A DNA stretch of 64,000 bases from an uncultured delta proteobacterium (GTDB taxonomy: Bacteria > Desulfobacterota > Syntrophia > Syntrophales > Fen-1087). The translations under genes and the position numbers were made by a program. The first letter of the stretch is position 1. Each line of letters begins with the position of its first letter. The notes below the pieces were generated by a model that was not told the DNA's origin, did no database searches, and saw nothing but the letters and a program-made list of their open reading frames with translations. This document shows positions 8,716 to 50,412 of this stretch, piece after piece. The stretch covers positions 6,396-70,395 of the forward strand of contig CAVPSX010000015.1 in assembly GCA_963708515.1 (NCBI GenBank), written 5' to 3'.

Positions 8716-8901
8716 CATACCGAAGAAAAACGGCTTCGCTGCGGCTCACAATCATTTTCGATATAAGATATTAGAATTCTTTAAAATATTTATAAAATCA
8801 ATAATTTAGTCATGGGGACATTTATGGAGTCGTGTACCTATAGCGAAAAATCTTTCATTTGCCGCTTGCGAACCATTTTTCTTCGGTTATGTAAAGCTCT
8901 C
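8716..8901 (+). mobile_element. MITE-like inverted-repeat element, copy A (long form)
   Basis: Shares ACC..GAAAAA(T/C)GGCTTCGC left arm, CCGCTTGCGAACCATTTTT..GGTTATGTAAAGCTCTC right arm and central AATCAATAA with copies at 24787, 26589 and 47021. Confidence 0.8.
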
Positions 8902-8923
8902 AAAGAGTCAGGAGTTTACAAGA

Positions 8924-10072
8924 ATGTCATTTTCATTTGAACAGGGGCCCATCCGGCCGCCTAGTGAACATAGAAGTCTGCTGATCCGTGTGACCAGGAA
9001 TTGTCCCTGGAACAAGTGCGCCTTCTGTCATTCCTACCGCAATGAGCGGTTTGCCCTGCGATCGGTGGAGGAAGTCAAACAGGACATTCAGTCGGCAGGT
9101 CGGATTGCCGAAGAAATCCGTGCACTGTCGTGGAAATTGGGAGAAGGGGGGCATGTCAGCGAGAGGATCGCCAATGCCGTCTGGCAGCAGAACGAGCTCT
9201 ATAATGACCAGTTCCGCTCTATCGCCGCATGGCTTTACTACGGCGGCGAATCCGTTTTTCTGCAGGACGCCGATTCACTCATCCTGAAGACGAAAGATCT
9301 GGTGGAGATCCTTTCTTGCCTCAGAACGACATTTCCTTTGGCCAGGCGGATCACCTCTTACTGCCGTTCAAAGACGGCGGCCAGAAAGTCCGTGGAGGAC
9401 TTCCGGCTGCTCCGGGATGCCGGCCTGTCCCGAATTCATATCGGCATGGAAAGCGGTTATGATCCTCTGCTGAAATTTATCCGGAAAGGGACAACGGCGG
9501 CGGAACATATCGAAGGGGGCAGGAGAATCGTGGCGGCAGGGATTTCATTGTCTGAGTACGTGATCCCGGGGCTGGGCGGTACAAAATGGTCGAGGGAACA
9601 TGCCCAGGAGACGGCCCGGGTGATCAATCAAATCAACCCGGCGTTTATCAGGCTCCGGTCGCTGCACGTTGTCCGTGACACAGATCTTTATGAACGGATG
9701 CAGAACGGGGAATTCACCCCAGCGGGCGAGGAAGAGGTGTTGCACGAAATTCGCATGTTTATCGAGCACCTCGAAGGGATAGAGAGCACGCTGGTGAGTG
9801 ATCACATCCTGAACCTTCTGGAGGAACTGGAAGGGACCTTGCCGGCGGACAAAGAAAAAATGCTGTCTCTGATCGACCGGTACTTTGCCTTGCCGTCGCA
9901 GGATCGCATCATCTTCCGTCTGGGACGGCGGAAAGGCCTTTACCGAAGCCTGGATGACCTTGACAACCAGAAAACATACCTGAAACTGAAACAGATTGTC
10001 GACGAATATGTGTCGAAGGAGCCCGAGCAACTGGATAGAGACCTCAGAAGGCTGATGCATTCATATATTTAA
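8924..10072 (+). CDS. Radical SAM protein
   Basis: CPWNKCAFC (CxxxCxxC); IRPPSE N-terminus; GMESG. Confidence 0.9.
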   Translation: MSFSFEQGPIRPPSEHRSLLIRVTRNCPWNKCAFCHSYRNERFALRSVEEVKQDIQSAGRIAEEIRALSWKLGEGGHVSERIANAVWQQNELYNDQFRSIAAWLYYGGESVFLQDADSLILKTKDLVEILSCLRTTFPLARRITSYCRSKTAARKSVEDFRLLRDAGLSRIHIGMESGYDPLLKFIRKGTTAAEHIEGGRRIVAAGISLSEYVIPGLGGTKWSREHAQETARVINQINPAFIRLRSLHVVRDTDLYERMQNGEFTPAGEEEVLHEIRMFIEHLEGIESTLVSDHILNLLEELEGTLPADKEKMLSLIDRYFALPSQDRIIFRLGRRKGLYRSLDDLDNQKTYLKLKQIVDEYVSKEPEQLDRDLRRLMHSYI

Positions 10073-10078
10073 AAAAGA

Positions 10079-10107
10079 TTGACGAATGTGTAAAATCCTG
10101 GTAACAT
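10079..10107 (+). promoter_or_regulatory. Putative sigma70 promoter of the carD operon
   Basis: TTGACG-N17-TAACAT upstream of carD. Confidence 0.5.
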
Positions 10108-10144
10108 ATCAGGTTCAAATTTACAATGGCAGGTGGTGTGTACT

Positions 10145-10630
10145 ATGTTCAAGGTAGGGGATATGGCTGTTTATCCCGCCCAGGGCGTCGGTGTGATCGA
10201 GTCCATCGAAAACAGGGAAGTGATGGGCAATAAACAACTTTTCTATGTCATGAAAATCATGGGTAATGGCATGAAGATCATGATTCCCATGAGCGGTGCG
10301 GATGCCGTCGGACTCAGGGAGGTGATTGCCCGGGAGGAGATACCAAAAATCTACGAGATCCTCAGAAACAAGGATGTGACCATCGACAAGCAGACCTGGA
10401 ATAAAAGATACCGGGAATACCTGGAAAAAATCAAGACGGGATCGGTCTTTGAGATCGCCCGTGTGTTGCGGGATCTCTTAATATTAAAAACCGATAAGAA
10501 TCTGTCCTTTGGTGAGCGCAAGATGATGGATACGGCCAAGAACCTGCTCATCAAAGAAATCTCGGTTGCAAGTAATGCTGAAGAGACCAAGGTTGAGCAG
10601 GATCTGAAAACCATTTTTACTTTTCAATAA
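10145..10630 (+). CDS. carD: CarD family transcriptional regulator
   Basis: FKVGDMAVYPAQGVG; WNKRYRE; LSFGERKMMD. Confidence 0.95.
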   Translation: MFKVGDMAVYPAQGVGVIESIENREVMGNKQLFYVMKIMGNGMKIMIPMSGADAVGLREVIAREEIPKIYEILRNKDVTIDKQTWNKRYREYLEKIKTGSVFEIARVLRDLLILKTDKNLSFGERKMMDTAKNLLIKEISVASNAEETKVEQDLKTIFTFQ

Positions 10631-10668
10631 ATAATACAAACATTTATAAAGAAAGGAGGTGATTATTT

Positions 10669-11676
10669 ATGACCGTAAAGATTCTTTTGGTCTTGGCTTG
10701 TTCTTTGAGCGGACTCTTTATTGCCAACATTTACTATGGTCTCCCGATTGCGATAATTGGTTTATTTATAGGATTTTTAATCGCTTTATTTGTTATCCAG
10801 ATAGAAGAATCGATCCGGAAAGTATCATTACGGATCATCTTTGGCGGGGTTGTCGGGATGATCGTCGGCTTGCTGATCGCCTATCTGCTGGCCTATGGTT
10901 TGAATTTTGTAAGCGTGGAAAAACAACAGATCGTCCCCTGGATTTATGTGTTACTGACAGGCATCATGGCTTATCTGGGCCTTTTGATCGGTTCGAAGAA
11001 AATTGAAGAATTCAGCTTTCGTGGCTTAGGTCAGAGTAGGGACAGCAGCGATCACCGGGTTCTCGACACCAGTGTCATCATTGATGGCCGGATTGCCGAT
11101 ATTGCCGATACGGGTTTTTTGCATGGCAATTTGATTGTGCCGCGATTTGTTCTGGATGAATTGCAGTATATTGCCGATTCCTCCGATTCCTTGAAGCGCT
11201 CCCGTGGCCGGCGAGGGCTTGATATCCTGAACCGGATGCAGCGAAGCGTCGGGATCCATATCGATGTTATGGATCAGGATTTCCCGAAATTAAAAGGGGT
11301 GGACGCAAAATTGGTCGCCCTCGCGAAAAAGATGAACGCCAAAATTGTAACCAATGACTTCAATCTCAACAAGGTTGCCGAACTTCAGGGTATAAAGATT
11401 CTCAACGTCAACGAACTGGCCAATGCCCTCAAACCGGTCGTTCTTCCCGGTGAGACCATGTCCGTCAAAATCATCAAGGAAGGCAAGGAACCGGGACAGG
11501 GCGTTGCCTATCTTGACGACGGAACCATGATCATCGTGGATCATGCACAAAAGCATCAGGGGGCCAATGTCGAGGTCCTGGTCACCAGTGTCCTGCAGAC
11601 AACTGCCGGCCGGATGATATTTTCGGAACTCAAGCACGTTACATCTGAAAAGAAGGTTATCGGGCTGGCGACCTGA
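10669..11676 (+). CDS. PIN/TRAM domain membrane protein (YacL-like)
   Basis: N-terminal TM helices, LDTSVIIDGRI PIN motif, C-terminal TRAM (GVAYLDDGTMIIV...LQTTAGRMIF). Confidence 0.93.
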   Translation: MTVKILLVLACSLSGLFIANIYYGLPIAIIGLFIGFLIALFVIQIEESIRKVSLRIIFGGVVGMIVGLLIAYLLAYGLNFVSVEKQQIVPWIYVLLTGIMAYLGLLIGSKKIEEFSFRGLGQSRDSSDHRVLDTSVIIDGRIADIADTGFLHGNLIVPRFVLDELQYIADSSDSLKRSRGRRGLDILNRMQRSVGIHIDVMDQDFPKLKGVDAKLVALAKKMNAKIVTNDFNLNKVAELQGIKILNVNELANALKPVVLPGETMSVKIIKEGKEPGQGVAYLDDGTMIIVDHAQKHQGANVEVLVTSVLQTTAGRMIFSELKHVTSEKKVIGLAT

Positions 11677-11690
11677 TCGGCACGCAAATG

Positions 11691-11721
11691 AGCCCGGGAA
11701 ATCAACCCCCGGGCTTTTTTT
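11691..11721 (+). terminator. Intrinsic terminator
   Basis: AGCCCGGG-loop-CCCGGGCT followed by a T run. Confidence 0.7.
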
Positions 11722-11831
11722 ATCAATCTCTTAAAACGGCCTGCGCCTCGATGCGTCGCACCCATCAGTTATAGGGCTCGCGTCTCAATCCGGGCGCATC
11801 TGTTACGAGCCAAAAAGAGTATCCAGCAACC

Positions 11832-12516
11832 ATGACAACTGTCGCCATCGTCCCCGCCGCCGGATCCGGCAAAAGAATGCAGGGAAATCTGTCCAAGCAA
11901 TATCTGCCGGTTGACGGCAAGATGATCCTGCTTCACACCCTCTAGCGTTTTCGAGCTTTCGCCGGATATTGATGAGATTATCCTTGTGGCACCCGAGGAA
12001 GATGTCCTGATGGTCCGGCAAATGATTATTGAGTCCCGGGAAATTTCCAAGGTCCGTCATGTTATGGCAGGGGGAAAACAGAGACAGGATTCCGTCCGGA
12101 ACGGGTTGGCCGTCGTCGAGGACCACGCGGATATCGTTTTGATTCACGATGCGGTCCGGCCGTTTATATCAGAGAACTTGATCCGTCAAACCGTTCGGGA
12201 AGCCGAAAAACATGGCGCCGTCACGGTGGGGATGCCGGTGAAGGACACCATCAAGAGGGTTGATCCGGGCGGATGGATCGTCGAGACGATGAACCGGCAG
12301 TTATTATGGATGACGCAGACACCGCAGGCATTCAGACGATCCGTGATTCAGGAAGCCTACCTCAGGGCCGATCAGGATCAGTTTTATGGGACCGATGACG
12401 CCTCGCTGGTTGAACGGATGGGACTCCGGGTCAAGATGATTGCCGCCTCCTATGCGAACATCAAGATCACGACGCCCGAAGATCTTCTCATAGCGGAATT
12501 TCTGATAAAAAAATAA
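11832..12516 (+). CDS. ispD: 2-C-methyl-D-erythritol 4-phosphate cytidylyltransferase; +1 frameshift near 11943
   Basis: [12 protein letters not shown]...KQYL from ATG 11832; [29 protein letters not shown] in the next frame. Confidence 0.93.
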
Positions 12517-12533
12517 AGAGGGGGAGGGATCTG

Positions 12534-13016
12534 ATGAGAATCGGGTTCGGATATGACAGTCATCGCCTGGCGGAGGGGAGAAGACTGGTGCTGGGGGGGG
12601 TGGAAATTCCACATGACAGGGGCCTGCTGGGGCACTCCGACGCCGATGTGCTGGTCCATGCTGTTTGCGATGCCATTCTGGGCGCCCTGGCTGCCGGCGA
12701 TATCGGCCGTCATTTCCCCGATACGGATCCGGCCTATAAAGACATTTCCAGCTTGAAGCTGCTTGAGCACGTCCGGATTTTAGGCGCGCAAAGGGGGTAC
12801 GACATTCATAATGTCGATTCCACCGTCGTTCTGGAACAGCCAAGGATTTCTGAACATATCCCTGTTATGGCGGTGAAACTGGCTGAAACCCTTAAAATTG
12901 CTTTGGAAAGCGTCAATGTGAAAGCTAAAACGAATGAGGGGATGGGCTTTGCCGGACGTCAGGAAGGCATAGCCGCTTATGCGGTGGTGACGATTATCAA
13001 AAGGGAGGATGGATGA
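12534..13016 (+). CDS. ispF: 2-C-methyl-D-erythritol 2,4-cyclodiphosphate synthase
   Basis: [25 protein letters not shown]. Confidence 0.97.
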
Positions 13017-14477
13017 CCGTCGAAAAACCGCGTGTCCGGTTCGCTCCCTCGCCGACCGGTGATCTTCATGTGGGTAATGCCAGGACAGCTCTGTTCAACT
13101 ATCTGTTTGCCCGACATCATGGCGGCGAATTCATTCTCCGCATTGAAGATACGGATGCCGTGCGGACGTCAAATCATTCTGAAAGCCGGATCCTCGAGGA
13201 CCTGGCGTGGCTGGCCATCGACTGGGATGAAGGTCCCGGCGCCGGCGGAGAAAAAGGTCCCTATCACCAGCGTGAACGTCTTGATTTGTATGACCATTAT
13301 CTGAAAATACTGATCCGGGCCGGATACGTTTATCCCTGTTACTGCACGGAAGAAGAACTGGAGGCGGAGCGGGCGGAGCTGATTTTCAGAAAAATGATGC
13401 CCCGCTATATGGGAAAGTGCCGGAGCCTGAGCGATTCAGAGCGTAAAAAGCTGGCAGACCAGGGAAGAGAACCGGCTTACCGCTTCCGGACCGGAACAGA
13501 AAGCATCGCGTTCACGGATTTGATCCGGGGCGCCATGAAATTTGACGCCGGGGCAATAGGGGACTTTCATCATCGTCCGTTCCAACGGCATCCCCGCTTA
13601 CAATTTTGCCGTCGTCGTCGATGACCATCTGATGAGCGTCTCCCATGTGATCCGCGGAGAGGACCATCTTTCCAATACGGCCCTGCAGTTTCTGATCTAT
13701 CAGGCCCTCGGTTTCAGGCCGCCCGTCTTTGCCCATCACGCCCTCATTCTGGGAAAAGACCGGTCCAAGCTCAGCAAACGTCACGGATCCGTCACGGTCC
13801 GGGAATTCCGGGAAAGGGGTATCCTGCCGGAGGTGCTCCTGAACTATCTTGCACTGCTTGGCAGTTCCCTCGGCGGCGGACGGGAAGTCTGTTCCCTGGA
13901 GGAAATGATCTCCGCTTTTTCGCTCGATCGCGCCGGAAAGAGCGGGGCCATCTTCGATGAGGACAAACTTAAATGGCTCAACGGGATCTATATGCGCCAG
14001 GGGGATTTGCACAGGTTGACTGAACGATTACTGCCTTTCATCAGGGCTGCCGGTTATGATGTTGATGCCCTTGATCGGATGTGGCTTGAAAGGGTCACGG
14101 ATGCGGTTCGGGGCGATCTCTCGACGTTGTCGGACATAGGGGAGCAGATGGATATTTTTTTTGACGACCGCTATGTCCTTTCCAGCGAGGCGCAGCGACT
14201 TCTCGGGAAAGAACAGGCCCTGACCGTCGTCCGGGCCCTTCAGGAAAGCCTCGACAAGCTGCCCTCCTCCGCGGAACGCTTCTACCAGGAGATCATGGTG
14301 TCTGTCGAAAGAAAGACCGGCGCCAAAGGGAAAAAACTCTTCATGCCGATTCGCGCTGCCGTAACCGGGAAAACAAGGGGGCCGGAACTGGACAGGGTAT
14401 TTGCGATTTTGAGCCCCGCCTCCCTGAAGTATCGGGTCGAAATAGCGATCAGCGGTCTGTCGGGGACAAACCGCTGA
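13013..14477 (+). CDS. gltX: Glutamate--tRNA ligase; +1 frameshift near 13565
   Basis: [14 protein letters not shown] (HIGH), RIEDTD, CYC Zn motif, then HVIRGEDH and KLSKR in the second frame. Confidence 0.95.
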
Positions 14478-14538
14478 TCGTCGGGAACGACCACCACGAT
14501 ACAAAATTCCTCTTTGAAAAAACCCGCCTGAACCGCTT

Positions 14539-16107
14539 TTACAGCGGAATGTTGTTATGCTTCTTCGACAACCGGACCTCTGTTTTGTCTTTGAGCGCAT
14601 CCAACAGCATCACCACCCGTTTGCGGGTATCGCGGGGGGCGATGATCTCTTCGATGATGCCCATGCCGGCCGCGAAGTAGGGGTTATTAAACTGGTCTTC
14701 ATACGAAGCAACCAGCTCCGCGCGCTTGGCGGCAGGATCTTCTGCAGAAGCAATCTCCCTGCGATAGATAATGTTGCAGGCGCCCTCGGCGCCCATCACA
14801 GCGATTTCTGCCGATGGCCAGGCCATCACATAATCCGCTCCCAGATACTTGCTGCACATGCCGATATAGGCGCCGCCGTAATCCTTGCGCGTCACCACGG
14901 TGATTTTCGGAACCGTCGCTTCCGAATAGGCATGAAGCAACTTGGCGCCGTGGCTGATGATGCCCGACCATTCCTGATTCGTGCCGGGCATATAGCCGGG
15001 AACATCCGAGAAGGTCAGCAGGGGGATGTTGAAGGCGTCGCAGAAGCGGATAAAGCGGGAGGCCTTGTCCGATGCGTTGACATCCAGCACGCCGGCCCCG
15101 AACTTCGAATTATTGGCAATAACGCCGACCGTCCGGCCCATGATCCGGATGAACGCGACGAGCATGTTTTTCGCCCACATCTCATGTGGTTCGAAGATTT
15201 CGTTTTGATCGGCTACCGCCATCACGACCTTCTTCATGTCGTAGCCGCGCGTGGCCTTGTCCGGAATGATCCCGTCCAGTTCCGGGCATTCCCGCTCCGG
15301 ACTGTCCGAGCAGGCCGCCGGTGGCAGGGTGCTGTGGCAACTGTCGGGCAGATAAGACAGCAGCATCTTGACTTTATTGATACAATCTTCGTCATTTTCC
15401 GTGGCAAAATGGCAAACGCCGCTTTTGGTCGCATGGGCCACGGCGCCGCCGAGTTCATCGTGCGTGACCTCTTCGCCGATGACGGCCTTGATCACATCGG
15501 GACCCGTAATGTACATGTAACTGGTCTTCTTGACCATGAAGACCCAGTCCGTCAGGGCCGGTGAATAAACGGCGCCGCCCGCCGTGGGCCCCATGATCGC
15601 CGTGATCTGGGGAATATATCCGGAACCGATCGTATTGCGGTAAAAGATGCCGCCGTAGCCGTCCAGGGCCGGGACGCCTTCCTGAATCCGGGCGCCGCCG
15701 GAATCATTCATGGACACGAAGGGTTTGCGCGCATCAAGGGCCATGTCCATGATCTTCCAGATTTTCCTGGCGTGCATTTCGCCGAGACTGCCGCCGGAAC
15801 TGGTAAAATCCTGCGCAGCGGTAAAGACAGTGCGTCCGTTGACCTTTCCGAAACCGACAATTACGCCGTCTGCATGGATTTCTTTCTTGTCCAGGCCAAA
15901 CAGGGACGAGCGGTGTTTTACGAAAAGCTGCACTTCCTGAAATGTGCCCGGATCGAAAAACCTGTCCAGCCTTTCCCGGGCCGTGAGTTTGCCGAGTTCA
16001 TGCTGCTTGGCGATCATCTTCTCGCCGCCCATTTTCATGAGGGCTTCCTTCTTGGCTTCAAAGGCCTTGATTTTTGCCTGTGTTCCCTTCAATTCTTCCG
16101 TTCCCAT
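14539..16107 (-). CDS. Acyl-CoA carboxyltransferase subunit (PccB/MmdA-like)
   Basis: DSGGARIQEG, AGGAVYSPALTD, DVPGYMPG, KKHNNIPL. Confidence 0.93.
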   Translation of the reverse strand: MGTEELKGTQAKIKAFEAKKEALMKMGGEKMIAKQHELGKLTARERLDRFFDPGTFQEVQLFVKHRSSLFGLDKKEIHADGVIVGFGKVNGRTVFTAAQDFTSSGGSLGEMHARKIWKIMDMALDARKPFVSMNDSGGARIQEGVPALDGYGGIFYRNTIGSGYIPQITAIMGPTAGGAVYSPALTDWVFMVKKTSYMYITGPDVIKAVIGEEVTHDELGGAVAHATKSGVCHFATENDEDCINKVKMLLSYLPDSCHSTLPPAACSDSPERECPELDGIIPDKATRGYDMKKVVMAVADQNEIFEPHEMWAKNMLVAFIRIMGRTVGVIANNSKFGAGVLDVNASDKASRFIRFCDAFNIPLLTFSDVPGYMPGTNQEWSGIISHGAKLLHAYSEATVPKITVVTRKDYGGAYIGMCSKYLGADYVMAWPSAEIAVMGAEGACNIIYRREIASAEDPAAKRAELVASYEDQFNNPYFAAGMGIIEEIIAPRDTRKRVVMLLDALKDKTEVRLSKKHNNIPL

Positions 16108-16132
16108 AACTTCTGCGTCTCCTTTGATTATT

Positions 16133-16159
16133 GGGGGACAGATTTCAAATCTGTCCCCC
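16133..16159. repeat. Perfect palindrome GGGGGACAGATTT-C-AAATCTGTCCCCC
   Basis: 13-bp arms with 1-nt spacer, between divergent genes. Confidence 0.85.
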
Positions 16160-16343
16160 TTTGGGTGATTTCCGTCTTGACCTCGAAGTCTCCTTGAGAT
16201 ATGTACCCAGCAGCCAGGCTATTCCCGCAGAGCGGCCATGCCTGGCAAGGAATGTGTGTGCTACATCCGATGGGCATTATGAACAGGCTTCGAATTTCGG
16301 GGCGCCACATAGCACGTTTGGGATTAAGTTGCAAGGGGGATCA

Positions 16344-17537: not shown

Positions 17538-17627
17538 AAATGGGGACTGCTTAAGACCCTTCCTGCGGCTGCAACCTGGGCTTTTCGGAGCCATCGTCCC
17601 TTATCTTCAAAGACCGGACAGATCCTC

Positions 17628-18365: not shown

Positions 18366-18371
18366 GCGGAT

Positions 18372-21259: not shown

Positions 21260-23918
21260 ATGAGCAAGGGGTCTTTAAACAAAGCCTATGAACCACATGC
21301 GGCCGAAGCAAGGTGGTACCAATACTGGCTGGATCAGGATTTTTTCAGGGCACAGGATGTCTGCGACAAACCGCCATTCTGCATCGTCATACCACCCCCC
21401 AATGTAACAGGCATGCTCCACATGGGGCACGCCCTGAACAATGTCCTGCAGGATGTCATGACGCGCTTCAGGCGCATGCAGGGGTATAACGCCCTGTGGA
21501 TGCCGGGGACGGATCACGCCGGCATTGCCACGCAGAACGTCGTGGAGCAGGAACTGGCCAAAGAGGGCCTCACCAGGCACGACCTCGGCCGCGAGAAGTT
21601 CATCGAACGCGTCTGGCTCTGGAAGGAAAAATACGGCGGCGTCATCATCAACCAACTCAAGCGACTGGGCTGCTCCTGTGACTGGTCCCGGGAGCGCTTC
21701 ACGATGGATGAGGGCCTTTCCCGCGCCGTCCGCGAGGTTTTTGTGCGGCTCTACCATGACGGTCTGATCTACCAGGGGGACTATATCGTCAACTGGTGCC
21801 CCCGCTGTCATACGGCCATCTCGGACCTCGAAGTCGAATACGCCCAAGAGCCGGGCTTTCTCTGGAGCATTCGCTATCCCTATGTGGACGGCAGCGGCGA
21901 CATTGTCGTCGCCACCACGCGGCCCGAAACGATGCTCGGGGATACGGCCGTCGCCGTGAACCCGAAAGATGCCCGTTATGCCGGCAAGATCGGCAAAGAG
22001 GTGATCCTGCCGCTTGTAAACAGAATTATTCCGGTGATTGCAGATGATTACGTTACCATGGACTTCGGGTCAGGCGCAGTGAAAATCACGCCGGCATCCG
22101 ACCCCAATGACTTCGCCATCGCCGGCCGCCATAACCTCGAAATCATCAAGATCATGGACGGCAGCGCCGTTATCAATGAAAACGGCGGCCGCTATCAGGG
22201 GCAGGACCGCTACGAGTGCCGGGAAAATGTCGTTAGTGATCTTGAAACAGCAGGGTTATCTTGTCGGTGTGGAACCCTATGCGCGCAGCCTCGGCCAGTG
22301 TTACCGCTGCAAGACGGACGTGGAGCCCTTTATCTCCAAGCAGTGGTTCGTGAAAATCCAGCCGCTGGCGAAGGCCGCCAGTGCCGCCGTCATCAAGGGC
22401 GCCACGCGCATCATCCCGCCCATGTGGGAAGCGACGTATTTTGAGTGGATGAGCAACATCCGTGACTGGTGCATTTCCCGTCAGATCTGGTGGGGGCACC
22501 GGATCCCCGTCTGGTACTGCGACGAGTGCGGGCAGATTATTGTTTCGTCGGACGATCCCGATCGCTGCACGGGCTGTCAGAATGAACGGCTGCGGCAGGA
22601 TGAAGACGTCCTCGATACGTGGTTCAGCTCGGCCCTGTGGCCCTTTTCTACGCTGGGCTGGCCGGACCAGACCGAGGCTCTCAAGACCTTTTATCCCACA
22701 TCACTATTGGTTACGGGCTTTGACATTCTCTTTTTCTGGGTGGCACGCATGATGATGATGGGCATTTATGTCATGAAAGATGTGCCGTTTGGGGATGTCT
22801 ATCTGCACGCCCTGGTTCGCGATGAGCACGGCGACAAGATGAGCAAATCCAAGGGCAATATCATCGATCCCCTGCAAATGATCGACAAATATGGCGCCGA
22901 TCCCTTCCGCTTTACGCTGGCGGCCTTCACGGCGCAGGGGCGCGACGTGCGCATGTCGGAGGAGCGCATCGAAGGCTACAAGTTCTTTGTCAACAAGATC
23001 TGGAACGCCGCGAAATTTTCCATGATGAATCTGGAAGACTACGTTGCCGATGATCAGGCCGGGCCGGGCAAGGCCGATCTGTCGCTTCCCGATCGCTGGA
23101 TTCTGGCGCGGCTCAACCGGACCGTCGCTGAAGTGATCCGGGGGCTGGATGAATACCGCTTCAATGAGGCCACCGGGAGCCTCTACCAGTTTGTCTGGCA
23201 CGAATTCTGCGACTGGTACCTGGAGCTCATCAAGCCGGTCCTCTATGGCCGGGACCCGTCCTCCCGGCGGCGGGCGACGCAGCATACCTTGCTGCGGGCG
23301 CTCAGACAGATTCTCAAGCTGCTGCACCCCTTCATGCCGTTTTTAACCGAGGAAATCTGGCAGACCGCGGTGGCGGACGGCGTCTCGATCATGGTCAGTC
23401 CCTATCCGGAACCGGACAGGGGGCTTGAAGATGAAGACGCCGAGCGCCGCATGGGCCTCATCGTGGAGTGCATCACGCGCATCCGCAACATCCGCGGCGA
23501 AATGAATATCGCTCCATCCCGGAAGCTCAGGGTCGTCATTTCGGCGCCTGATGAGGCCCTGGCTGCCGTTCTCAATGAAGGCAGGGATTACATCGTCAAT
23601 CTGGGCAACCTCGGAACGCTGACAGCGGGCGTGAATCTAAATGAGCCCAAAGGGTCCGCCGTCGGCATAGTCGGCGCGGCGCGCGTCTTTGTCCTCATGG
23701 AGGGCATGATCGATGTCGCCGCCGAGAAGGCAAGGCTGGACAAAGAGATGAACAAGGTCGCACGGGATCTCAGTGTGGTCTCCCAAAAGCTGGCCAATCG
23801 CGAGTTTATGGACAAGGCGGCCGAAGCTGTCATCAAAAAGGAAGAGCAGAAATATCAGGATCTGCGTGAAAAACACCAAGTCCTGGAGGCGGCCATCAAG
23901 AAGCTGGAGGCGCTTTGA
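21260..23918 (+). CDS. valS: Valine--tRNA ligase; +1 frameshift near 22245
   Basis: [19 protein letters not shown], then [20 protein letters not shown] and C-terminal coiled coil in the second frame. Confidence 0.97.
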
Positions 23919-24757: not shown

Positions 24758-24786
24758 GGAACGCGGACACTTCACCCCGATCCCGT

Positions 24787-24974
24787 GAGACCTTTGAAAA
24801 ATGGCTTCGCCGCGGCTCAAAATCTTTTTCGCATGAAATATGATAAGGCTCAAATTTGTTAGAAATCAATAAAATAGTCATGGGGAGGGGGCTTGACGGA
24901 GTCGTGTCCCCATCAACGAAAAATCTTTGATTCGCCGCTTGCGAACCATTTTTCACCGGTTACACAAAGCTTTC
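24787..24974 (+). mobile_element. MITE-like inverted-repeat element, copy B (long form)
   Basis: GAGACCTTTGAAAAATGG...CCATTTTTCACCGGTTACACAAAGCTTTC; homologous to copies A, C and D. Confidence 0.85.
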
Positions 24975-24991
24975 CCCATCTCATCGATATT

Positions 24992-26588: not shown

Positions 26589-26752
26589 GAAACCGTTGAA
26601 AAATGGCTTCACAGCGACTCAAAAACTTTATCCTAAAAATATCATAAAGCTTACATATCTTTTAACCAATAAATTAGCCCAATTTCCGGATATGCGATAA
26701 ATCTTTGATTCACCGCCTGCGAACCATTTTTCACCGGTTATGCAATGCTTTC
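26589..26752 (+). mobile_element. MITE-like inverted-repeat element, copy C (short form)
   Basis: GAAACCGTTGAAAAATGGCTTC...GCGAACCATTTTTCACCGGTTATGCAATGCTTTC. Confidence 0.82.
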
Positions 26753-38290: not shown

Positions 38291-38332
38291 CAAAAAAGGG
38301 CGAGAAAAGCCATGTTTCCTCGCCCTTTTTTG
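38291..38332. terminator. Bidirectional terminator
   Basis: CAAAAAAGGGCGAG...CTCGCCCTTTTTTG. Confidence 0.7.
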
Positions 38333-38347
38333 TGGTGCAACATATAA

Positions 38348-38650: not shown

Positions 38651-38805
38651 GGCGGTAAACTCCTGAGATGCTGTTTGTGACCCGTGTGTATGTCTCGTCT
38701 CACGATTCTTTTCTAAATTTAATAGCACCGGTAAGGAAAGGGGGTCAATAAAAATCAAGGCCGCAGACCTGCAAAAATATGGGACGCTTCCCAGTCAGAG
38801 GTCCG

Positions 38806-41388: not shown

Positions 41389-41463
41389 GACGGCTGTCCC
41401 CCCGATATGATGAACTCGAAAAAAGTCCGATACCTGTCCGGACCTTATCGAGATGAAAGATCA

Positions 41464-41480
41464 GAGACCTTTGAAAAATG
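41464..41480 (+). repeat. Isolated left end of the MITE-like element
   Basis: GAGACCTTTGAAAAATG, identical to 24787-24803. Confidence 0.55.
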
Positions 41481-41528
41481 AGCAACGCCCCTACCTCAAA
41501 CATAGATGAATATCAGGACCCTGTCAAC

Positions 41529-41561
41529 GTGATTCCGGGGGAAATGTGATTCCGGGGGAAA
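41529..41561 (+). repeat. 17-bp tandem direct repeat
   Basis: GTGATTCCGGGGGAAAT followed by GTGATTCCGGGGGAAA. Confidence 0.8.
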
Positions 41562-41647
41562 GAAGGGCGACGCAAGTTCATCATGCTCGTTCCCGGATTG
41601 CCCCTGCACATTTGACAACAGGCCCGGTATCGTTTATATTCGAACCC

Positions 41648-43261: not shown

Positions 43262-43377
43262 AGAATAACCCCGCCGCATCGATCTTTCCCTCTTCCAATA
43301 ATTTCTTGCCGATTCGACAGCTTGTCTGCTATGAGGAAGCCGTTCCTCATAGGCTGTGATAGTATGGAGGCGAAGCA

Positions 43378-43821
43378 ATGCCCGCGCATTTAACCATTAC
43401 GTTGCCGGCCAGGATGGATTCCCTGCACGCTTTTATGGAACAGGCGTCCGTCTGTGCCGAAAAGCAGGGTTTCAGCCCGGACAGGATCAGGGATATTGAG
43501 CTCGTGCTGGAGGAACTTTTCGTGAATATCATCAGTTATGCCTATCCGGAGGGGGAGGGGTTCATCGAGATGACCTGCCGCAGCGATGCCCGCGGCCGGC
43601 TTGTTTTTGAAATTGCGGACAGCGGCGTTTCCTTCAACATGCTTGCTTACGGCGATCCCGATACGACGGCGCGAATCGAAGAACGGCAGATCGGGGGGCT
43701 CGGCATTTTCTTTGTCAAGAAACTCATGGACGAGGTGCATTACCGTCGGGAGGACGACCGGAATATCCTGACGATCGCCGCATCCAGAAACCGGAAAGAG
43801 GATCGAGATGGAGCGGAATAA
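43378..43821 (+). CDS. Anti-sigma factor / Ser-Thr kinase (RsbW-like HATPase)
   Basis: ELVLEELFVNIISYAY, DSG, IGGLGIFFVKKLMD. Confidence 0.9.
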   Translation: MPAHLTITLPARMDSLHAFMEQASVCAEKQGFSPDRIRDIELVLEELFVNIISYAYPEGEGFIEMTCRSDARGRLVFEIADSGVSFNMLAYGDPDTTARIEERQIGGLGIFFVKKLMDEVHYRREDDRNILTIAASRNRKEDRDGAE

Positions 43822-44092
43822 CAAAAGCAGGCAGGAGATCCTGTTCGAAATCAAGGCGGGCGCCCTCTTGCTGCAGCATAACATGTCCAGCCACCTGCTG
43901 GGCGAGGCCCTTTACGCGCAGATGGAGTACGATCGGCTGGTGGAGCAGTTCCATGACGGCCATCGCGAGTGGTGTTCGGAAGAGGATTACGAGACCGCAA
44001 AGCGCGATTTTGACGCCTTCATCAGGCTGCTGGATGTGGCCATCGAGCGGGTCCGTCGGGAACAGAGGGAGGGGGCTCCTGATAAATCATGA
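43808..44092 (+). CDS. Hypothetical protein
   Basis: 94-aa ORF overlapping both neighbours. Confidence 0.65.
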   Translation: MERNNKSRQEILFEIKAGALLLQHNMSSHLLGEALYAQMEYDRLVEQFHDGHREWCSEEDYETAKRDFDAFIRLLDVAIERVRREQREGAPDKS

Positions 44093-45331
44093 ACCCGCAG
44101 GGACTTTTAGGGTTGGCGGTGTTGACGGCCCTGGCCTGGCTCATCAGTGAAAACAGGCGCCGCATCCCGGTCAAGACGGTACTGATCGGTCTTGCCGTCC
44201 AGTTCGCGCTGGCCTTCCTGCTGCTCAAAATTCCCGTTTTCAGGGATTTTTTTCTGTTGCTCAATAAGGCCGTCATCATCCTGGAAAAGGCCACAACAGC
44301 GGGAACGTCTTTTGTCTTCGGCTATCTTGGCGGCGGCGCGCCGCCCTTTGTGGAAACCTATCCCGGGGTCGAGCTTTATCTTTGCCTTCAGGGCCATGCC
44401 GCTGGTCCTGGTAATCAGCGCCCTGTCTTCCGTGCTGTTCTACTGGAAAATTCTGCCCCGGGTGGTCCGGGCCTTTTCCTGGCTGCTGCAGAAGACCCTG
44501 AACATCGGCGGGGCTGTTGCGCTGGGGGCCTCTGCCAATGTCTTTCTCGGGATGGTCGAGGCGCCGCTTCTGATCCGCCCCTATTTGAAAAACATGACGC
44601 GCAGCGAGCTGTTCATCACGATGGCCTGCGGCATGGCCAACATTGCCGGGACGGTCATGGTCATCTATGCCGTCATTCTCAACCGCGTGATGCCGGACGC
44701 CATGGGGCACATCCTGATTGCATCCATCATCAGCACCCCGGCGGCGATCATCATTTCCCTGCTCATGATTCCGGAGACGGGAGAAGTCACCTCCGGCAGG
44801 ATCGAGCCGCCGCAGGCGGCCTCCGGCACAATGGATGCCGTGGCAAAAGGAACTTCCGAGGGCATCGTCCTGCTCATCAACATTATTGCCATGCTTGTCG
44901 TGCTGCTGGCGCTCGTGGAACTGACCAACCAGATTTTGGCGATATTACCCGCCTGGGGAGGCCAGCCGGTTTCCCTCCAGCGGCTCCTGGGTTATCTGAT
45001 GGCGCCGGTTGCATGGCTCATCGGCATTCCCTGGTCGGAGGCGCCGGCGGCGGGCGCGCTGCTGGGCACGAAGACAATCCTGAACGAATTTATCGCTTAT
45101 GTCGATCTTGCAGGTCTGCCCGATGCGGTCTTGAGCCCGAGGAGCCGCATGATCATGCTCTACGCCCTGTGCGGATTTGCCAATTTTGGCAGTCTGGGTA
45201 TCATGATCGGCGGGATGGGGGCCATGGCGCCGGAAAGGCGCGACGAGATCGTCGCCCTCGGCTTCAAATCCATCCTTGCCGGGACCATGGCGACCTGCAT
45301 GACGGGGGCGATCATCGGCCTGTTTCTGTAA
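44089..45331 (+). CDS. NupC/CNT family nucleoside transporter; +1 frameshift near 44365
   Basis: N-terminus FVFGYLGG in one frame; ANVFLGMVEAP, KTILNEF, LCGFANFGS in another. Confidence 0.9.
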
Positions 45332-45446
45332 ATAAAGGTCTCCCTTTCATTTTGCTGCGGCGAGTGTTATAAGTCAACCATCCTGCACAAAGGGGCGGTG
45401 CCTTGATGCGCGGGACAAATTTACGGATCATCAGGAGAATGTATCG

Positions 45447-46997
45447 ATGCAGGAAGACCAGGGCGAAAAAGGCGCGACAGGCGCGACAGACGCGACAGAT
45501 ATTCCATTGCAGCAGCGTGAAGATCGTCAGCAACTCAGCAATGAACGGATCATAGAGCCGGTCAACGCCCTGCCCGAGACGACCATCGAGGCGCTACCCG
45601 AACGGTCCCGGGCGGCATGCGCCAGCGCGGGATGGACAAAACTGTTGCCGGTTCAGGCCCGGGCCATTCCCTATCTGATGGCCAAGCGCAACATCATGGT
45701 CCAGTCGCAAACGGGCAGCGGCAAGACGGGGGCTTTCCTGCTGCCGATCCTGGAGCGGATCGATATGGCGAAACGGGCCTGCCAGGCCTTGATCCTCGTT
45801 CCGACCCGTGAACTGGCCCTCCAGGTTTCCCGCGAGGCGGAGCTTCTGGGCGGCGATTTCGGGATACGGACGGCCGTGGTGTACGGCGGCGTCAAATACG
45901 GCCCCCAGCTGGATGCATTCCGGGACGGGGCGCAGCTTGTCGTGGGGACGCCTGGGCGTATTCTCGACCACCTGCTCAAGGAGACACTCTCTCTGGAAGC
46001 CCTGCAGATCCTCGTGTTCGACGAAGCCGACCGCATGCTCTCCATGGGGTTCTATCCCGACATGAAGCGGGTCCAGCAGTTCCTGCCTTCCCGGCCGATC
46101 AGCGGCTACATGTTTTCCGCGACTTTTCCGGGCTACGTGCTGCGCCTGGCAGGGGACTTCCTGCGCAATCCGGAGTTTCTGAGCCTGAGCCGCGATCATG
46201 TCCACGTCGTCGGGACGGATCACATCTACTATCTGGTGCCGGGAATGCAGCGGGAACGGTCGCTCATCCGGATCATTGAAATGGAAAACCCCGTTGCCGC
46301 GATCATTTTCTGCAACACAAAATCGACGGTGCATTTCGTGACGGTGGTGCTCAAGCGTTTCGGCTACGACGCCGACGAGCTGAGTTCCGATCTCGCGCAG
46401 GGAGCACGGGAACGGGTCATGGGGCGCGTGCGCAAGGGCGCCCTGCGGTTCCTCGTGGCGACCGATGTGGCGGCCCGCGGCATCGACATTCCCGACCTGT
46501 CTCACGTGATCCAGTATGAACCCCCGGAAGATCTGGAGCTCTACATCCACCGGGCGGGGCGCACGGGGCGCGTGGGGGCCAGCGGCATGGCCATCTCCAT
46601 TGTGGCCGGCATGGAACAGTTCAAGTTGAGAGAAATATCCCGCAGCTTCAATATCGCGCTTGAGCAGAAAACGCTTCCCACGGATGAAGATGTGGAAGCG
46701 ATCGTTTCCCAGCGCGTGATTGCCTTGCTGGAAGCCGAACTGCGTTCCCGAGGCAGCCTGGAGCTCGAGCGCATGCAGCGGTTTATCCCGCTGGGCCGCA
46801 GCCTGACCGAAGCGGAGGAGGACTCCCCGCTCATTGCCATGCTGCTGGACAACTACTACCAGCAGACCCTTCATGCCCCCCCGCAGCCTCTACCGGCGGA
46901 CGCGCCGGTCGAAAAAGAGGCGTTTGAAGAAAAGAAAAAACCGCGCCCCCGGCGGCCGAGCGATCGGCGCAGGCAGCGCGGCTTCAAAACAGATTGA
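45447..46997 (+). CDS. DEAD-box RNA helicase
   Basis: QTGSGKT, PTREL, DEAD, SAT, ARGID, HRAGRTGR. Confidence 0.96.
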   Translation: MQEDQGEKGATGATDATDIPLQQREDRQQLSNERIIEPVNALPETTIEALPERSRAACASAGWTKLLPVQARAIPYLMAKRNIMVQSQTGSGKTGAFLLPILERIDMAKRACQALILVPTRELALQVSREAELLGGDFGIRTAVVYGGVKYGPQLDAFRDGAQLVVGTPGRILDHLLKETLSLEALQILVFDEADRMLSMGFYPDMKRVQQFLPSRPISGYMFSATFPGYVLRLAGDFLRNPEFLSLSRDHVHVVGTDHIYYLVPGMQRERSLIRIIEMENPVAAIIFCNTKSTVHFVTVVLKRFGYDADELSSDLAQGARERVMGRVRKGALRFLVATDVAARGIDIPDLSHVIQYEPPEDLELYIHRAGRTGRVGASGMAISIVAGMEQFKLREISRSFNIALEQKTLPTDEDVEAIVSQRVIALLEAELRSRGSLELERMQRFIPLGRSLTEAEEDSPLIAMLLDNYYQQTLHAPPQPLPADAPVEKEAFEEKKKPRPRRPSDRRRQRGFKTD

Positions 46998-47020
46998 TCC
47001 CGCAAAGGCAGACACGAAGA

Positions 47021-47186
47021 GAGACCGGTGGAAAATGGCTTCGCCGCGTCTCAAAATCTTTTTCGCTGGAAATATGATAATGCTAATTTATGATTGGAAT
47101 CAATAAATTAGTCTAATCTCTGGAAAGTCGAAAAATCTTTGATTCGCCGCATGCGAACCATTTTCCACAGGTTATGCAAAGCTCTC
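47021..47186 (+). mobile_element. MITE-like inverted-repeat element, copy D (short form)
   Basis: GAGACCGGTGGAAAATGGCTTCGCCGCG...GCGAACCATTTTCCACAGGTTATGCAAAGCTCTC. Confidence 0.85.
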
Positions 47187-47198
47187 CAGGCCTGTTTA

Positions 47199-49196
47199 TT
47201 AATAGAAATTCTTTCCAAAGATCTTCTTGCTTACGCCTGTCAGGTCCGCCCATTTCATCGGGCCGCCCTTGTCCGCCGGAAAACCGATGCCCCAGATCAT
47301 GCCCACGTCGATCATGCGCACGTCACCCACCACTTTCCTCTCCAGCAGGTCCCTGCCCGTCTTGACCATGGCCTCGATCAGTCCGTCCTGGATCTGCTCC
47401 GGCGAGAGCTCTCGGGGTTGGCGCTTTACGATCAGGGGCAGAACCTCCGGATCGACGCTGCCGTCTTTGACGAAGAAGCCCTTGCCTGATTTCTTGAGGC
47501 CCAGGCGGCCGGACTCGACGACGTTGGCCAGCGTTTCCTGGCGGATGCCCATGCCCTTGAAGATTTTATAGGGGATGTCGATGCCCACCTCGTCCGTGAG
47601 ACGGATGGGGCCGACGGGCATGCCGAAGTCCAGCATGGCCTTGTCGATCTTCTCGATGGCGTTGCCTTCCTCGAGGTAGCGGAAGGTTTCGATCAGCATC
47701 GGGAAGAGCAGGGCGTTGACGACGAATCCCGCATTGTCGCGGCAGACGATTGGACGCTTTTTGATCAGGGCCGCGAAATTCAGCAGGTTGTCGATTACAT
47801 CCTGGCCGGTCTGCTCGCCCTTGATGACCTCCACAAGCTGCATGAGCCAGACGGGGGAGAAGAAGTGAACGCCGCCGAAACGCTCCGGATGCGTGACGTA
47901 TGTTGCCATGGCGGTGATGGGAATCGAGGAGGTATTGCTGGCAATGACGCAGTCGTCTTTGACGACCTTGCAGAGCTCTTTATAGACCTGTTCCTTGACC
48001 TTGATATCCTCGAAAACGGCTTCAATGACCAGATCCACATCCTTGAAGGCGTCGGTGTATTCGGAAACGGCGGTCAGGCGGCCCATGACGGCATCCACAG
48101 GCTCCTTGAGGCGCTTCTTCTCGGCCATGCCGTCGAGCGTCTTGCGGACAAAGGCCTTGCCGGGTTCCAGGGCTTCGGGAATGTCCTTGACCAGGACGGG
48201 AATCTGTGTGTTTCTGATAATATCAATGGCAATGCCGCGGCCCATGGTGCCGAAGCCCAGGACGCCGATTTTGTTGAGCGGTTTCGGCTGGAATCCCTTG
48301 GTCATCATGGCTTTGGGCTTGTCGGTCATGCCTTTGATGAAGAAGGTATTGATGCTCCCCTTGGCCTGGGGAGTCAGAACCACTTCCGCAAAATTGTCGA
48401 TTTCTTTTTTCAGTCCTTCCTCCAGCGAAACCTTCAGGCCCTCATGGATGGATTTGAGCGCCAGAAAGGGGCCGGGAATGTAACGGCCTTTGGTCGCCTT
48501 CAGGATGCCCTGTTTGGCCATTTCCGCAACGGCGTCGATCTGCGAGAAATCATGGGTCGGGCGTTTCAGACCGGCCGTGCCGGCGTTGATCTCGCCAACC
48601 AGTTTTTTTGCTTCGGCCAGCAGGTCGCCGTCCGCGGGGACCAGGCGGTCCACGACGCCGGCCTCATAAGCCTTGGCCGCAGGCATCATCGTTCCCTTCA
48701 GGATCATCTCAAGGGCGGGATAGCCGACCAGCCGCGGCAGGCGCTGCGTGCCGCCGCCGCCCGGGAAAAGGCCCACGTTGCATTCGGGCAGGCCGATCAG
48801 CGTGCTTTTGCCTTCCTTGGCGATCCGGGCCGTACAGGCCAGCGCAAATTCGAGGCCGCCGCCCAGGCAGTAGCCGTGGATGGCGGCGATGGACGGATAA
48901 TTGAAGGCGTTGAGCTTCGCGAAAGAGCCGTGGAACAGATTCAGCATGTTGCGCGCCTCTTCGCCTTTTTCGATCTCCGCGATCATTTTCAGATTGGCGC
49001 CGGCAAAAAAGTTGTCCGGTTTGCCGGAAATGAAAATCAGGCCCGTGATCCCCGGCGTTTTGTCGAGTTCACCCATGAGCTCGTCGAAACTCATAAAGGC
49101 CTTGTCCGTCCATGTGTTCATGGCGTCGCCCGCGACATCGAATCTGACGACCCCGATGCCGCCGTCCTCCACTTTCAAATCAAAGATCTTGCTCAT
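47199..49196 (-). CDS. Bifunctional enoyl-CoA hydratase / 3-hydroxyacyl-CoA dehydrogenase (FadB/FadJ-like)
   Basis: CLGGGLE, PGGGGTQRLPRL, GFGTMGRGIA, ASNTSS, HFFSPV. Confidence 0.93.
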   Translation of the reverse strand: MSKIFDLKVEDGGIGVVRFDVAGDAMNTWTDKAFMSFDELMGELDKTPGITGLIFISGKPDNFFAGANLKMIAEIEKGEEARNMLNLFHGSFAKLNAFNYPSIAAIHGYCLGGGLEFALACTARIAKEGKSTLIGLPECNVGLFPGGGGTQRLPRLVGYPALEMILKGTMMPAAKAYEAGVVDRLVPADGDLLAEAKKLVGEINAGTAGLKRPTHDFSQIDAVAEMAKQGILKATKGRYIPGPFLALKSIHEGLKVSLEEGLKKEIDNFAEVVLTPQAKGSINTFFIKGMTDKPKAMMTKGFQPKPLNKIGVLGFGTMGRGIAIDIIRNTQIPVLVKDIPEALEPGKAFVRKTLDGMAEKKRLKEPVDAVMGRLTAVSEYTDAFKDVDLVIEAVFEDIKVKEQVYKELCKVVKDDCVIASNTSSIPITAMATYVTHPERFGGVHFFSPVWLMQLVEVIKGEQTGQDVIDNLLNFAALIKKRPIVCRDNAGFVVNALLFPMLIETFRYLEEGNAIEKIDKAMLDFGMPVGPIRLTDEVGIDIPYKIFKGMGIRQETLANVVESGRLGLKKSGKGFFVKDGSVDPEVLPLIVKRQPRELSPEQIQDGLIEAMVKTGRDLLERKVVGDVRMIDVGMIWGIGFPADKGGPMKWADLTGVSKKIFGKNFY

Positions 49197-49404
49197 TGGA
49201 CACCTCCTTAAGTTTATTATTTTATCGTCCTTGAATCATGACGACTTTGCAAGAAAACCCATGTGCCACGGTGTCACGTAAAACGCTTTTATCATATTTT
49301 TTTGTGGAGTTCTGCATTTTTTCAATCAACACTATCATTTTTCGGTGCAGCGCCAACGACAATTATGTTAAGAGACGTGAAAACAGATGGATGGAGCATC
49401 GAAT

Positions 49405-50352
49405 ATGAAAATCCTCTTTGCCGCGCATGAAAAAGCCTGGGGTGGTTTTTTCGGGTTAATACAAACCGAACTGCCGCAGCATACATTTGATGCCAGCGGG
49501 CGCTTCGGTTTCGAGAGTTTAAAGGGATTTGATGTCCTGATCCCGACCATGAGTGTCGTCGGCAGGGAGCAGCTTGCAACGGCGGACCGCCTTCAACTCA
49601 TTCAACAGTGCGGCGCCGGCCTGGAGGGCGTCGACATTCCGGCGGCGCTGGACCTGAATATCCGGGTAGCCAACGTTCCCACCGAGATGTCCGGCAATGC
49701 CGATTCCGTGGCGGAACTGGGCATCTACTTGTTGCTCGGTCTGTCTCGGGATTTCCGCAAGATGGCCCTGAGCCTGGCGAACAGGCAGACAGGGACGCCT
49801 CAGGGACGGGCCTTGTCCGGCAAGACGGTGGGCCTTGTCGGCCTCGGCGGCATCGGCCGCGCCCTGGCAAAAAAACTCGAGCCCTTCGGCGTTCGCCTGA
49901 TGGGCATTAAACGCCATAATCCACAAAAGGCGAAAGAGGAACTGGGCCTCGAATGGGCCGGGATGCCGGAGGAGATGGACGTGCTTCTGGGCCAGTCCGA
50001 CTATGTGGTGCTCTGTCTGCCGCTGACGCCCGAGAGCCGGCACATGATCGGACGGCAGGCCTTCAATGCGATGCGGCGGAATGCGTTTTTAATCAATCTG
50101 TCCAGGGGCGGTCTCGTTGACCGGGACGCGCTGGAGGAGGCGCTTGTCTCGGAGCGGATCGCAGGTGCCGGCCTGGATGTATTCTGGGAGGAGCCGGTGG
50201 ATCCGGACGATCCTATATTCAAATACAACGTTCTTGCAACGCCCCATATCGCCGGGTCCACGGACGTTTCCATCAGCGGCATCGTCGGGGCAGTGGCTGA
50301 AAACATCCGGAAACTGGAGCAGGGACAGGAGCCGCTGTATCAAAAAAAATAA
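49405..50352 (+). CDS. D-isomer-specific 2-hydroxyacid dehydrogenase
   Basis: GLGGIG, INLSRG, AGLDVFWEEP, TPHIAG. Confidence 0.92.
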   Translation: MKILFAAHEKAWGGFFGLIQTELPQHTFDASGRFGFESLKGFDVLIPTMSVVGREQLATADRLQLIQQCGAGLEGVDIPAALDLNIRVANVPTEMSGNADSVAELGIYLLLGLSRDFRKMALSLANRQTGTPQGRALSGKTVGLVGLGGIGRALAKKLEPFGVRLMGIKRHNPQKAKEELGLEWAGMPEEMDVLLGQSDYVVLCLPLTPESRHMIGRQAFNAMRRNAFLINLSRGGLVDRDALEEALVSERIAGAGLDVFWEEPVDPDDPIFKYNVLATPHIAGSTDVSISGIVGAVAENIRKLEQGQEPLYQKK

Positions 50353-50353
50353 G

Positions 50354-50412
50354 AAGTGCTTTGCATAACCGGTGAGAAATGGTTCGCAAGCGGTGAATCA
50401 AATATTTTTCGA
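50354..50412 (-). mobile_element. Right-arm half copy of the MITE-like element (copy E), inverted
   Basis: Reverse complement reads CGAAAAATATTTGATTCACCGCTTGCGAACCATTTCTCACCGGTTATGCAAAGCAC. Confidence 0.8.

Follow-up and report, generated by a model that had tools for sequence, protein, structure and literature searches.

The window, a stretch of 64,000 nucleotides from the genome of an uncultured delta proteobacterium of sediment (Syntrophales), carries four full copies of a short element, the left-end relic of a former copy and an inverted right half (Table 1). These six pieces, reported in a preliminary description of the window, were all located again by alignment, by profile scores and, for the relic at 41464, by its orthologous site. 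The four full copies can be aligned end to end and score 148-192 bits on the family profile; with the right-end profile, the inverted right half at 50354 reaches 63.7 bits. A real relic also stands at 41464, where the short left end corresponds in one genome of the same genus (G003) to a full copy with a perfect GATCA/GATCA duplication, in another (G001) to the same relic and in a third (G006) to an empty site. At the 47021 copy, the target duplication is absent. The copies had also been described as lacking ORFs, which agrees with the whole assembly, where 0/119 paired copies lie inside genes of our crude gene model (2,501 genes). Where ORFs of a mechanical list run into copies, we take them for antisense frames or upstream extensions.

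Table 1. Copies of the element in the window, with their target duplications and internal features.
Feature	Position	Strand	Context or remark
Full copy, 186 bp, long form with decayed nested palindrome	8716..8901	+	Between an M23/NlpD-like gene and a 382-aa ORF
5-bp target duplication of the 8716 copy	left 8711..8715, right 8902-8906	+	4/5 bases match
GGGGAC...GTCCCC-type palindrome, decayed, inside the 8716 copy	8814..8839	.	From sequence and marker scan
Full copy, 188 bp	24787..24974	+	Between nadC and birA
5-bp duplication of the 24787 copy	24782-24786 / 24975-24979		4/5 bases match
GC-rich palindrome from a second repeat family, nested	24882..24911	.	Inside the 24787 copy; family found alone elsewhere in the genome
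Full copy, 164 bp	26589..26752	+	Spacer on which coaX and an MFS transporter gene converge; decayed duplication, 3/5
Left-end relic of a former copy	41464..41481	+	GATCA (41459-41463) just before
Full copy, 166 bp (commonest size)	47021..47186	+	Spacer on which a DEAD-box helicase gene and a FadJ-like gene converge
IHF-site consensus match in the A+T-rich interior of the 47021 copy	47098..47110	+	Putative site, from sequence only
Inverted right half of a copy	50354..50412	-	Just downstream of a 2-hydroxyacid dehydrogenase gene

The boundaries of the element are sharp, and metagenome contigs confirm one of them, with loose ends piling up at 24786-24787 in three metagenomes. The termini form the imperfect inverted repeat of ~15 bp noted earlier, in which 12/15 bases are complementary on direct reading. 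A larger symmetry is distinct from this terminal repeat. In it, the left ~45 bases are paired with an arm on the inner right side, which ends 13 bases before the right terminus, and the folding z-scores are -4.88 as RNA and -5.94 as DNA. The interior is A+T-rich; in 87 long copies of this genome it falls into at least two subtypes (75 A, 9 B and 3 unassigned), and relatives have further ones. Exact matches to the IHF consensus, putative binding sites, occur in 35/87 long copies and number 141 genome-wide. In long forms, a GC-rich GGGGAC...GTCCCC palindrome occupies one of two internal positions. Its strict pattern is matched 52 times in the genome, in many cases outside the MITE family and in a few probably by chance.

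The preliminary description expected, from the density in the window, many copies across the genome, and this was borne out. Searching the assembly (2.81 Mb, 23 contigs) with a profile built from the four window copies gave 88 near-full matches. With separate left- and right-end profiles we obtained 119 paired copies (both ends, 53-191 bp) and 66 unpaired end matches, some of which are weak or antisense duplicates. The paired copies extend over 17,642 bp in total, or 0.63% of the DNA, and two copy pairs sit on strain-duplicate contigs (C16/C19). Their sizes cluster at 53-67 bp (16 copies), 87 bp (11), 133-159 bp (5), 161-168 bp (61) and 179-191 bp (26). Tandem spacers hold 84 copies, divergent spacers 19 and convergent spacers 15, with one further copy at the edge of a contig; these counts follow the genome's own spacer classes (1031/242/156). 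Within tandem spacers, 36 copies point with transcription and 48 against it, so that there is no orientation bias. No described Rfam family was matched at the gathering score in the whole window, and the E-value mode applied to 46900-47300 returned one chance match only (ylbH, 17.8 bits vs a gathering score of 50). Plasmid and phage collections gave no match to the element, and the two matches to an 18-base pattern in viral contigs are not copies of it.

The earlier impression that no target-site duplication is obvious did not stand, given that a 5-bp duplication is detected statistically. It is exact in 18/88 near-full copies (shuffled mean 0.34, maximum 3 in 500 shuffles) and within one mismatch in 38/88 (shuffled mean 2.6, maximum 10 in 500 shuffles), and in the same 88 copies the lengths 2-4 and 6-10 are at background. 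Among all 119 paired copies there are 26 exact duplications and 55 within one mismatch, and a 5-bp duplication was found in 39/87 copies from relatives. The target bias is weakly palindromic, with A at -4 in 55% and G at -3 in 5% of 94 symmetrised sites (intergenic background, A 27% and G 23%), mirrored by T at +4 and by avoidance of C at +3 from the centre.

Comparison with orthologous loci, which the preliminary description had proposed, revealed clean empty sites in genomes of the same genus. At the 8716 site, the element and exactly 5 bp (gap -5) are missing in G002, G003 and G004, and the site is filled in G001 and G006. The unrooted genus tree pairs this genome (G000) with G001, G002 with G004, and G003 with G006; therefore, at least two events must have taken place at this site. 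The 47021 site, 3' of the helicase gene, is empty with a gap of -6 in G002 and G004, holds other sequence in two relatives and is rearranged in one. In the nadC-birA spacer (24787) the element is absent in G003 and a different repeat family is found in G001, and the coaX spacer (26589) carries in G004 a copy with a different interior ~15 bp away. When 87 relatives' copies, mostly the best-scoring of G001 and G004, were mapped onto this genome, 22 fell on filled and 16 on empty sites, 25 gave other configurations and 24 could not be placed, with a few assignments loose and one copy (L244) mis-mapped. Twelve tightly anchored empty sites showed gaps of -5 (6 sites), -4 (2), -6 (2), -3 (1) and -8 (1). 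No clean joint skipping a window copy was seen among the metagenome matches listed, and these thus give no sign of present activity; one run of raw reads gave no alignment to the window.

Inserted copies have also changed in place. In 7/22 filled pairs a short form of 52-88 bp stands where relatives hold 165-189-bp copies, and the joint of the 87-bp form is visible in metagenome contigs, with a 9-base overlap; slippage between short internal repeats may account for such forms. In 17/50 non-TTT copies, left positions 7-9 complement the inner arm of the same copy, with a shuffled expectation of 6.0 (maximum 14 in 20,000) and related copies that are not independent. The three orthologues of the 8716 copy differ in their triplet pairs, each of which matches perfectly. 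In three copies from relatives (L270, L239 and L111), and in none found in this genome, the termini are fixed and the core between them is inverted. Template switching between inverted repeats produces both arm matching and core inversion (PMC8604942), and in this long hairpin it would explain both. The nested palindrome could reflect insertion of a second repeat.

The same site can also be filled in the opposite orientation (L227, L228 and L235), in the case of L235 by another subtype. All four combinations of left-arm allele and interior subtype exist (3, 1, 72 and 8 copies), and at least one multi-base marker differs in 9/13 same-site long pairs. The rank of the same-site partner among 89 long copies of this genome ranges from 1 to 83, a comparison of little power. 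The mosaic interiors may have arisen by recombination between copies or by repeated insertion at favoured sites, which the marker data do not tell apart.

The family was detected in 14/41 relatives, including 6/6 of the same genus, and in 13/251 genomes of the class at E 1e-8, across three families. Named records carrying the element are Syntrophus, Syntrophaceae and Syntrophales assemblies. Coding DNA of the genus members is 85-94% identical (12,344 aligned columns). Pairwise identity among the 87 long copies of this genome averages 80%, its median between nearest neighbours is 89%, and the highest value apart from duplicates is 95%; the copies are therefore old, and there was no recent burst in this genome. 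In genome G151, six compared copies average 94.5% identity and reach 99.4%.

With regard to the enzyme, the preliminary description pointed to an IS5-family link for the ends, and Table 2 of PMC4596501 gives ends almost the same as those of this MITE for ISPg1 and ISNme1, both of the IS5 family. In our survey of partners, DUF772 matches were found in 66/151 same-order genomes and 30 loci were fetched. The end motif occurs only at fetched loci with 330-390-aa ORFs (IS5 type), and the two transposases tested (L014 and L029) pass the IS5 model NF033581 with 174 and 199 bits (cut-off 140). These elements of related genomes measure 1.27-1.50 kb, and their ends match those of the MITE, as anticipated, at up to 16/17 and 15/17 positions (L194; 16/17 in L014). 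On the IS side, the end upstream of the transposase gene (IRL) is similar to the MITE right end, and the downstream end (IRR) to the left end. Upstream ends agree with the MITE right end at 12-16 of 17 positions in 11/12 elements (10 in L015), and the downstream end of L194 agrees with the left end at 15/17. Of 18 IS elements with readable flanks, 5 have an exact 5-bp duplication (L029, L159, L162, L163 and L194) and 13 lack an exact one. One genome of another family (G124) holds both an intact IS5 element (L022) and a MITE copy (L295), and in the same-genus genome G006 an IS5 C-terminal relic lies behind a MITE-type left end together with an IRL-like end.

A cognate IS5 transposase was not found in this assembly (99% complete; best tblastn E 0.42), in which neither a profile of 11 IS5 translations nor PF05598 (DUF772) gave a match and no IS ends lie at contig ends. 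None of 11 family genomes (0/11) has an intact IS5 transposase passing the NF033581 cut-off, and only relics were seen among them, in G005 and G006. Multi-copy IS are often lost from short-read assemblies, and the absence of IS5 here is for that reason weak evidence. The single PF01609 (DDE_Tnp_1) match, considered as a partner, is an IS4-type gene with other ends and was rejected. Long elements bounded by MITE ends were also sought, and none above 219 bp with a duplication exists among 114 pattern loci. Beyond ~30 terminal bases, nothing in the MITE could be aligned with 12 IS5 elements (best E 0.15), and an origin by deletion from one specific IS is therefore unsupported.

IS5-subgroup insertion sequences (ISNme1/IS1106 and ISPg1; NF033581; L014, L029 and L194) thus have the same end motif, end asymmetry and 5-bp duplication, and the MITE differs from them in its unalignable interior, in having no transposase gene and in its length (53-191 bp vs 1.3-1.5 kb). 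Among known MITEs, the Correia element (NEMIS) of Neisseria makes a 2-bp TA duplication. It is, like the family described here, an intergenic MITE of high copy number that falls into size classes and has a long stem-loop, and its IHF site has a putative counterpart here; it differs in its terminal sequence and in the promoter, IHF and RNase III effects that have been demonstrated for it (PMC3898611, PMC10969869, PMC3184786). IS1106 (IS5) has been suggested as its possible mover (PMC3898611). Chunjie, a MITE found in Geobacter uraniireducens, comes from the same broad lineage and resembles our family in size (178-235 bp), in the many intergenic copies, full as well as partial, and in a stable fold (PMC3184786, PMC10969869), but its terminal repeats are 21 bp and its duplications 9 bp, against ~15 bp and 5 bp here (PMC3184786). 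A 9-bp duplication was seen in 0/88 of our copies, which makes the two different families.

BrickBuilt and MITEPgRS/MITE464 of Porphyromonas gingivalis are IS5-family MITEs that are likewise non-coding and intergenic, with filled and empty sites between strains, and their 12-bp ends are nearly those of ISPg1/ISPg9/ISNme1, as in the Syntrophales MITE (PMC4596501). BrickBuilt differs in its 23-nt minisatellite and ~19 copies, its interior is unrelated as far as it is described, and the duplication reported at BrickBuilt_4 is 4 bp, vs 5 bp here (PMC4596501). The Syntrophales MITE works like these IS5-associated MITEs of Porphyromonas. We found no description of the family in the literature on MITEs, including a search for MITE with Syntrophus, and the main text of a MITE catalogue covering 183,232 genomes (PMC11602168) contains neither 'Syntroph' nor 'Desulfobacter'. 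The family is apparently new, and ordinary in kind, although ISfinder and the supplementary catalogue of PMC11602168 could hold it.

The ends, duplications and empty sites make it very likely, in our view, that the element is an IS5-subgroup MITE family whose mover would be an IS5-type transposase supplied from elsewhere. The MITE interpretation of the preliminary description is thereby upheld by the copy number, the empty sites, the IS5 elements with matching ends and the lack of an Rfam family. Its view of a non-autonomous element mobilised in trans gains support as an inference from those matching ends. Such a transposase would bind 15-30 terminal bases and pair the ends, with insertion at a 5-bp staggered cut of weak palindromic preference. 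Insertions into genes would be purged, leaving copies to collect in spacers, sometimes repeatedly in one spacer. The driving IS likely visits these lineages episodically and is likely absent or unassembled now, and most copies here are probably immobile and decaying.

A more far-reaching reading, which we regard as doubtful, is that this DDE-type MITE population behaves like REPINs. It would persist and turn over across the genus with no resident transposase, the same 5-bp sites being re-invaded either way round, the inner arms kept uniform by copy-to-copy recombination and a second RAYT-type palindrome being hosted. The REPIN-RAYT system is likewise a diverged, long-resident and hairpin-forming intergenic population common to related species, but REPINs depend on a kept single-copy Y1 transposase (bioRxiv 10.1101/2021.07.10.451892). 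The Syntrophales MITE, by contrast, shows ends and duplications of the DDE type, and our searches found no partner kept with it. Membership in REPIN-RAYT itself was rejected: the single Y1 gene of this genome is flanked by other motifs, and no MITE copy was seen in its locus. If REPIN-like persistence were true, it would amount to a long-lived, possibly host-maintained MITE ecosystem and would contradict the notion that MITEs die with their IS. Knowledge of MITEs stays unchanged unless long partner-less persistence is confirmed in closed genomes.

It is also conceivable, if quite improbable, that the element is a MITE by origin that was co-opted and is selectively kept in a REPIN-like manner. 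Its hairpin or IHF-like site would then serve the host (mRNA processing, nucleoid bending), with slow turnover through a host-kept enzyme. This would fit the presence of the element in all six same-genus genomes, whose coding DNA is 85-94% identical, at shared and lineage-specific sites, the missing intact IS5 in 11 family genomes, the strong folding, and the 35 of the genome's 141 exact IHF-consensus matches that fall in long copies. Ordinary MITEs are also held to persist only briefly (Bertels and Rainey, bioRxiv 10.1101/2021.07.10.451892). Moreover, in 40 duplication-intact copies the inner arms agree more closely (0.94-0.95) than the termini (0.89-0.90), although transposase binding by itself should give the opposite. 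The identity of the arms at 15 shared sites (0.884; 493/558) is nevertheless barely above that of the flanks (0.859; 642/747), with the termini at 0.807 (343/425), and this gives no clear sign of selection. Co-option is further weakened by the lack of a conserved partner gene, the sole DDE_Tnp_1 gene being of IS4 type, by spacer classes that simply follow those of the genome, and by the little weight that a missing IS carries in short-read assemblies. The earlier suggestion of possible domestication consequently found no support, as the copies show bias neither in orientation nor in context and match no Rfam family. RNA sequencing runs yielded only short, divergent pieces that are uninformative on transcription, and it is possible that single copies affect neighbouring genes.

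It is scarcely credible that recombination, and not transposition, multiplied a conserved element of another kind, be it a non-coding RNA, a terminator or a protein-binding site. The stable hairpin and the arm covariation within copies (17/50 vs 6.0 shuffled, kinship uncorrected) would suit such a site, but the 5-bp duplications and the -5-gap empty sites are scars of transposition and largely refute it. In addition, the best Rfam score was a chance match far below gathering, both orientations occur even at one site, and arm matching and core inversion are known products of template switching (PMC8604942). Y1 enzymes make no target duplications, which counts against such an enzyme as mover. 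Movement by any other enzyme, be it an IS1182-like DUF772 transposase, the IS4-type gene on contig C4 or the Y1/RAYT-like gene on contig C21, seems highly implausible: IS1182-sized DUF772 ORFs (460-570 aa) do occur in family genomes and the other two genes in this genome, yet the end motif was at none of those loci examined and is carried by the IS5 type (350-390 aa) only, and the Y1 gene is flanked by GGGACAG motifs, like the nested palindrome and unlike the MITE ends.

As an IS5-type MITE family, the element adds an apparently undescribed and abundant repeat (0.6% of the genome) to an uncultured Syntrophales-like genus. With candidate partner transposases named, its mobilisation becomes directly testable, and the orthologous filled, empty, inverted and re-written sites form a natural data set for the decay and recombination of hairpin repeats. 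Several unrelated short families in Syntrophales and Desulfobacterales records (36-219 bp, 5-bp duplications) are likewise delimited by the exact 18-base end pattern, and because of this the IS5 lineage with these ends appears to have spawned many MITEs.

A second palindromic repeat family, ~165 bp in length, was observed in the orthologues, in the same-genus relative G001, of the spacers that hold the full MITE copies at window 24787 and 26589 (locus L174). The same repeat was also found at several sites of G000, the assembly of our genome, and the spacers that carry it in one genome are spacers that carry the MITE in other genomes. Because both families occupy the same spacers in different genomes, particular spacers are colonised repeatedly, by the MITE and by the second repeat family. 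A comparison of locus L122 with G000:C2:113163 showed that one and the same 5-bp site, within an orthologous flank, is filled by an interior of subtype B in one genome and of subtype A in the other. An IS5 relic was detected beside a MITE-type end in another same-genus relative (L156, table).

Transposase-related loci in G000 and a relative (G006)
Locus	Position	Feature	Length	Profile match
L011	G000:C4:29101-32739	IS4-family transposase gene, intact-looking	390 aa	NF033592, 256 bits
L156	G006:C117:29892-33185	IRL-like end (the end upstream of a transposase gene) and C-terminal IS5 transposase relic, immediately behind a MITE-type left end		
L193	G000:C21:315527-315853	Y1_Tnp (RAYT-like) gene, single in genome	about 220-234 aa	

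The MITE end motif was shared by at least four more short families of 36-219 bp (L043, L048, L060, L061, L084, L053, L113 and others), whose source records were Desulfobacterales, Syntrophus and Bacteroidales. Several of these families had 5-bp duplications, and the shortest (36 bp) consisted merely of two ends joined. The IS4-family transposase gene (L011) has ends of its own and is unrelated to the MITE family.

Distinct from the MITE is a REP-like palindrome family, GGGGACAG...CTGTCCCC (e.g., window 16134-16158). A strict pattern for it had 52 matches in G000, a few of them probably due to chance; the palindrome occurred on its own, at two positions within the MITE and within the second repeat family. 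Inverted GGGACAG motifs, similar to the palindrome, lie on both sides of the Y1_Tnp gene (L193), and its protein is a candidate mover of the palindrome family. A Fic-like ORF adjoins this gene on the opposite strand.

With regard to assembly quality, the end of C2, the end of C6, C16/C19, C10, C14 and the start of C22 in G000 duplicate other assembly parts, with identities of 81-98%; the 7300-8770 region of the window recurs at the C2 end (93%). These duplicates are strain or relative contamination, and copy counts in G000 are slightly inflated by them. valS (window 21260-23918) was split into two frames by one additional base in a run near 22247-22250, which is likely an assembly error since relatives and metagenome contigs lack it. 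The commonest 21-mers genome-wide derived from a purine-rich tandem repeat (about 37-39 copies) that is probably coding.
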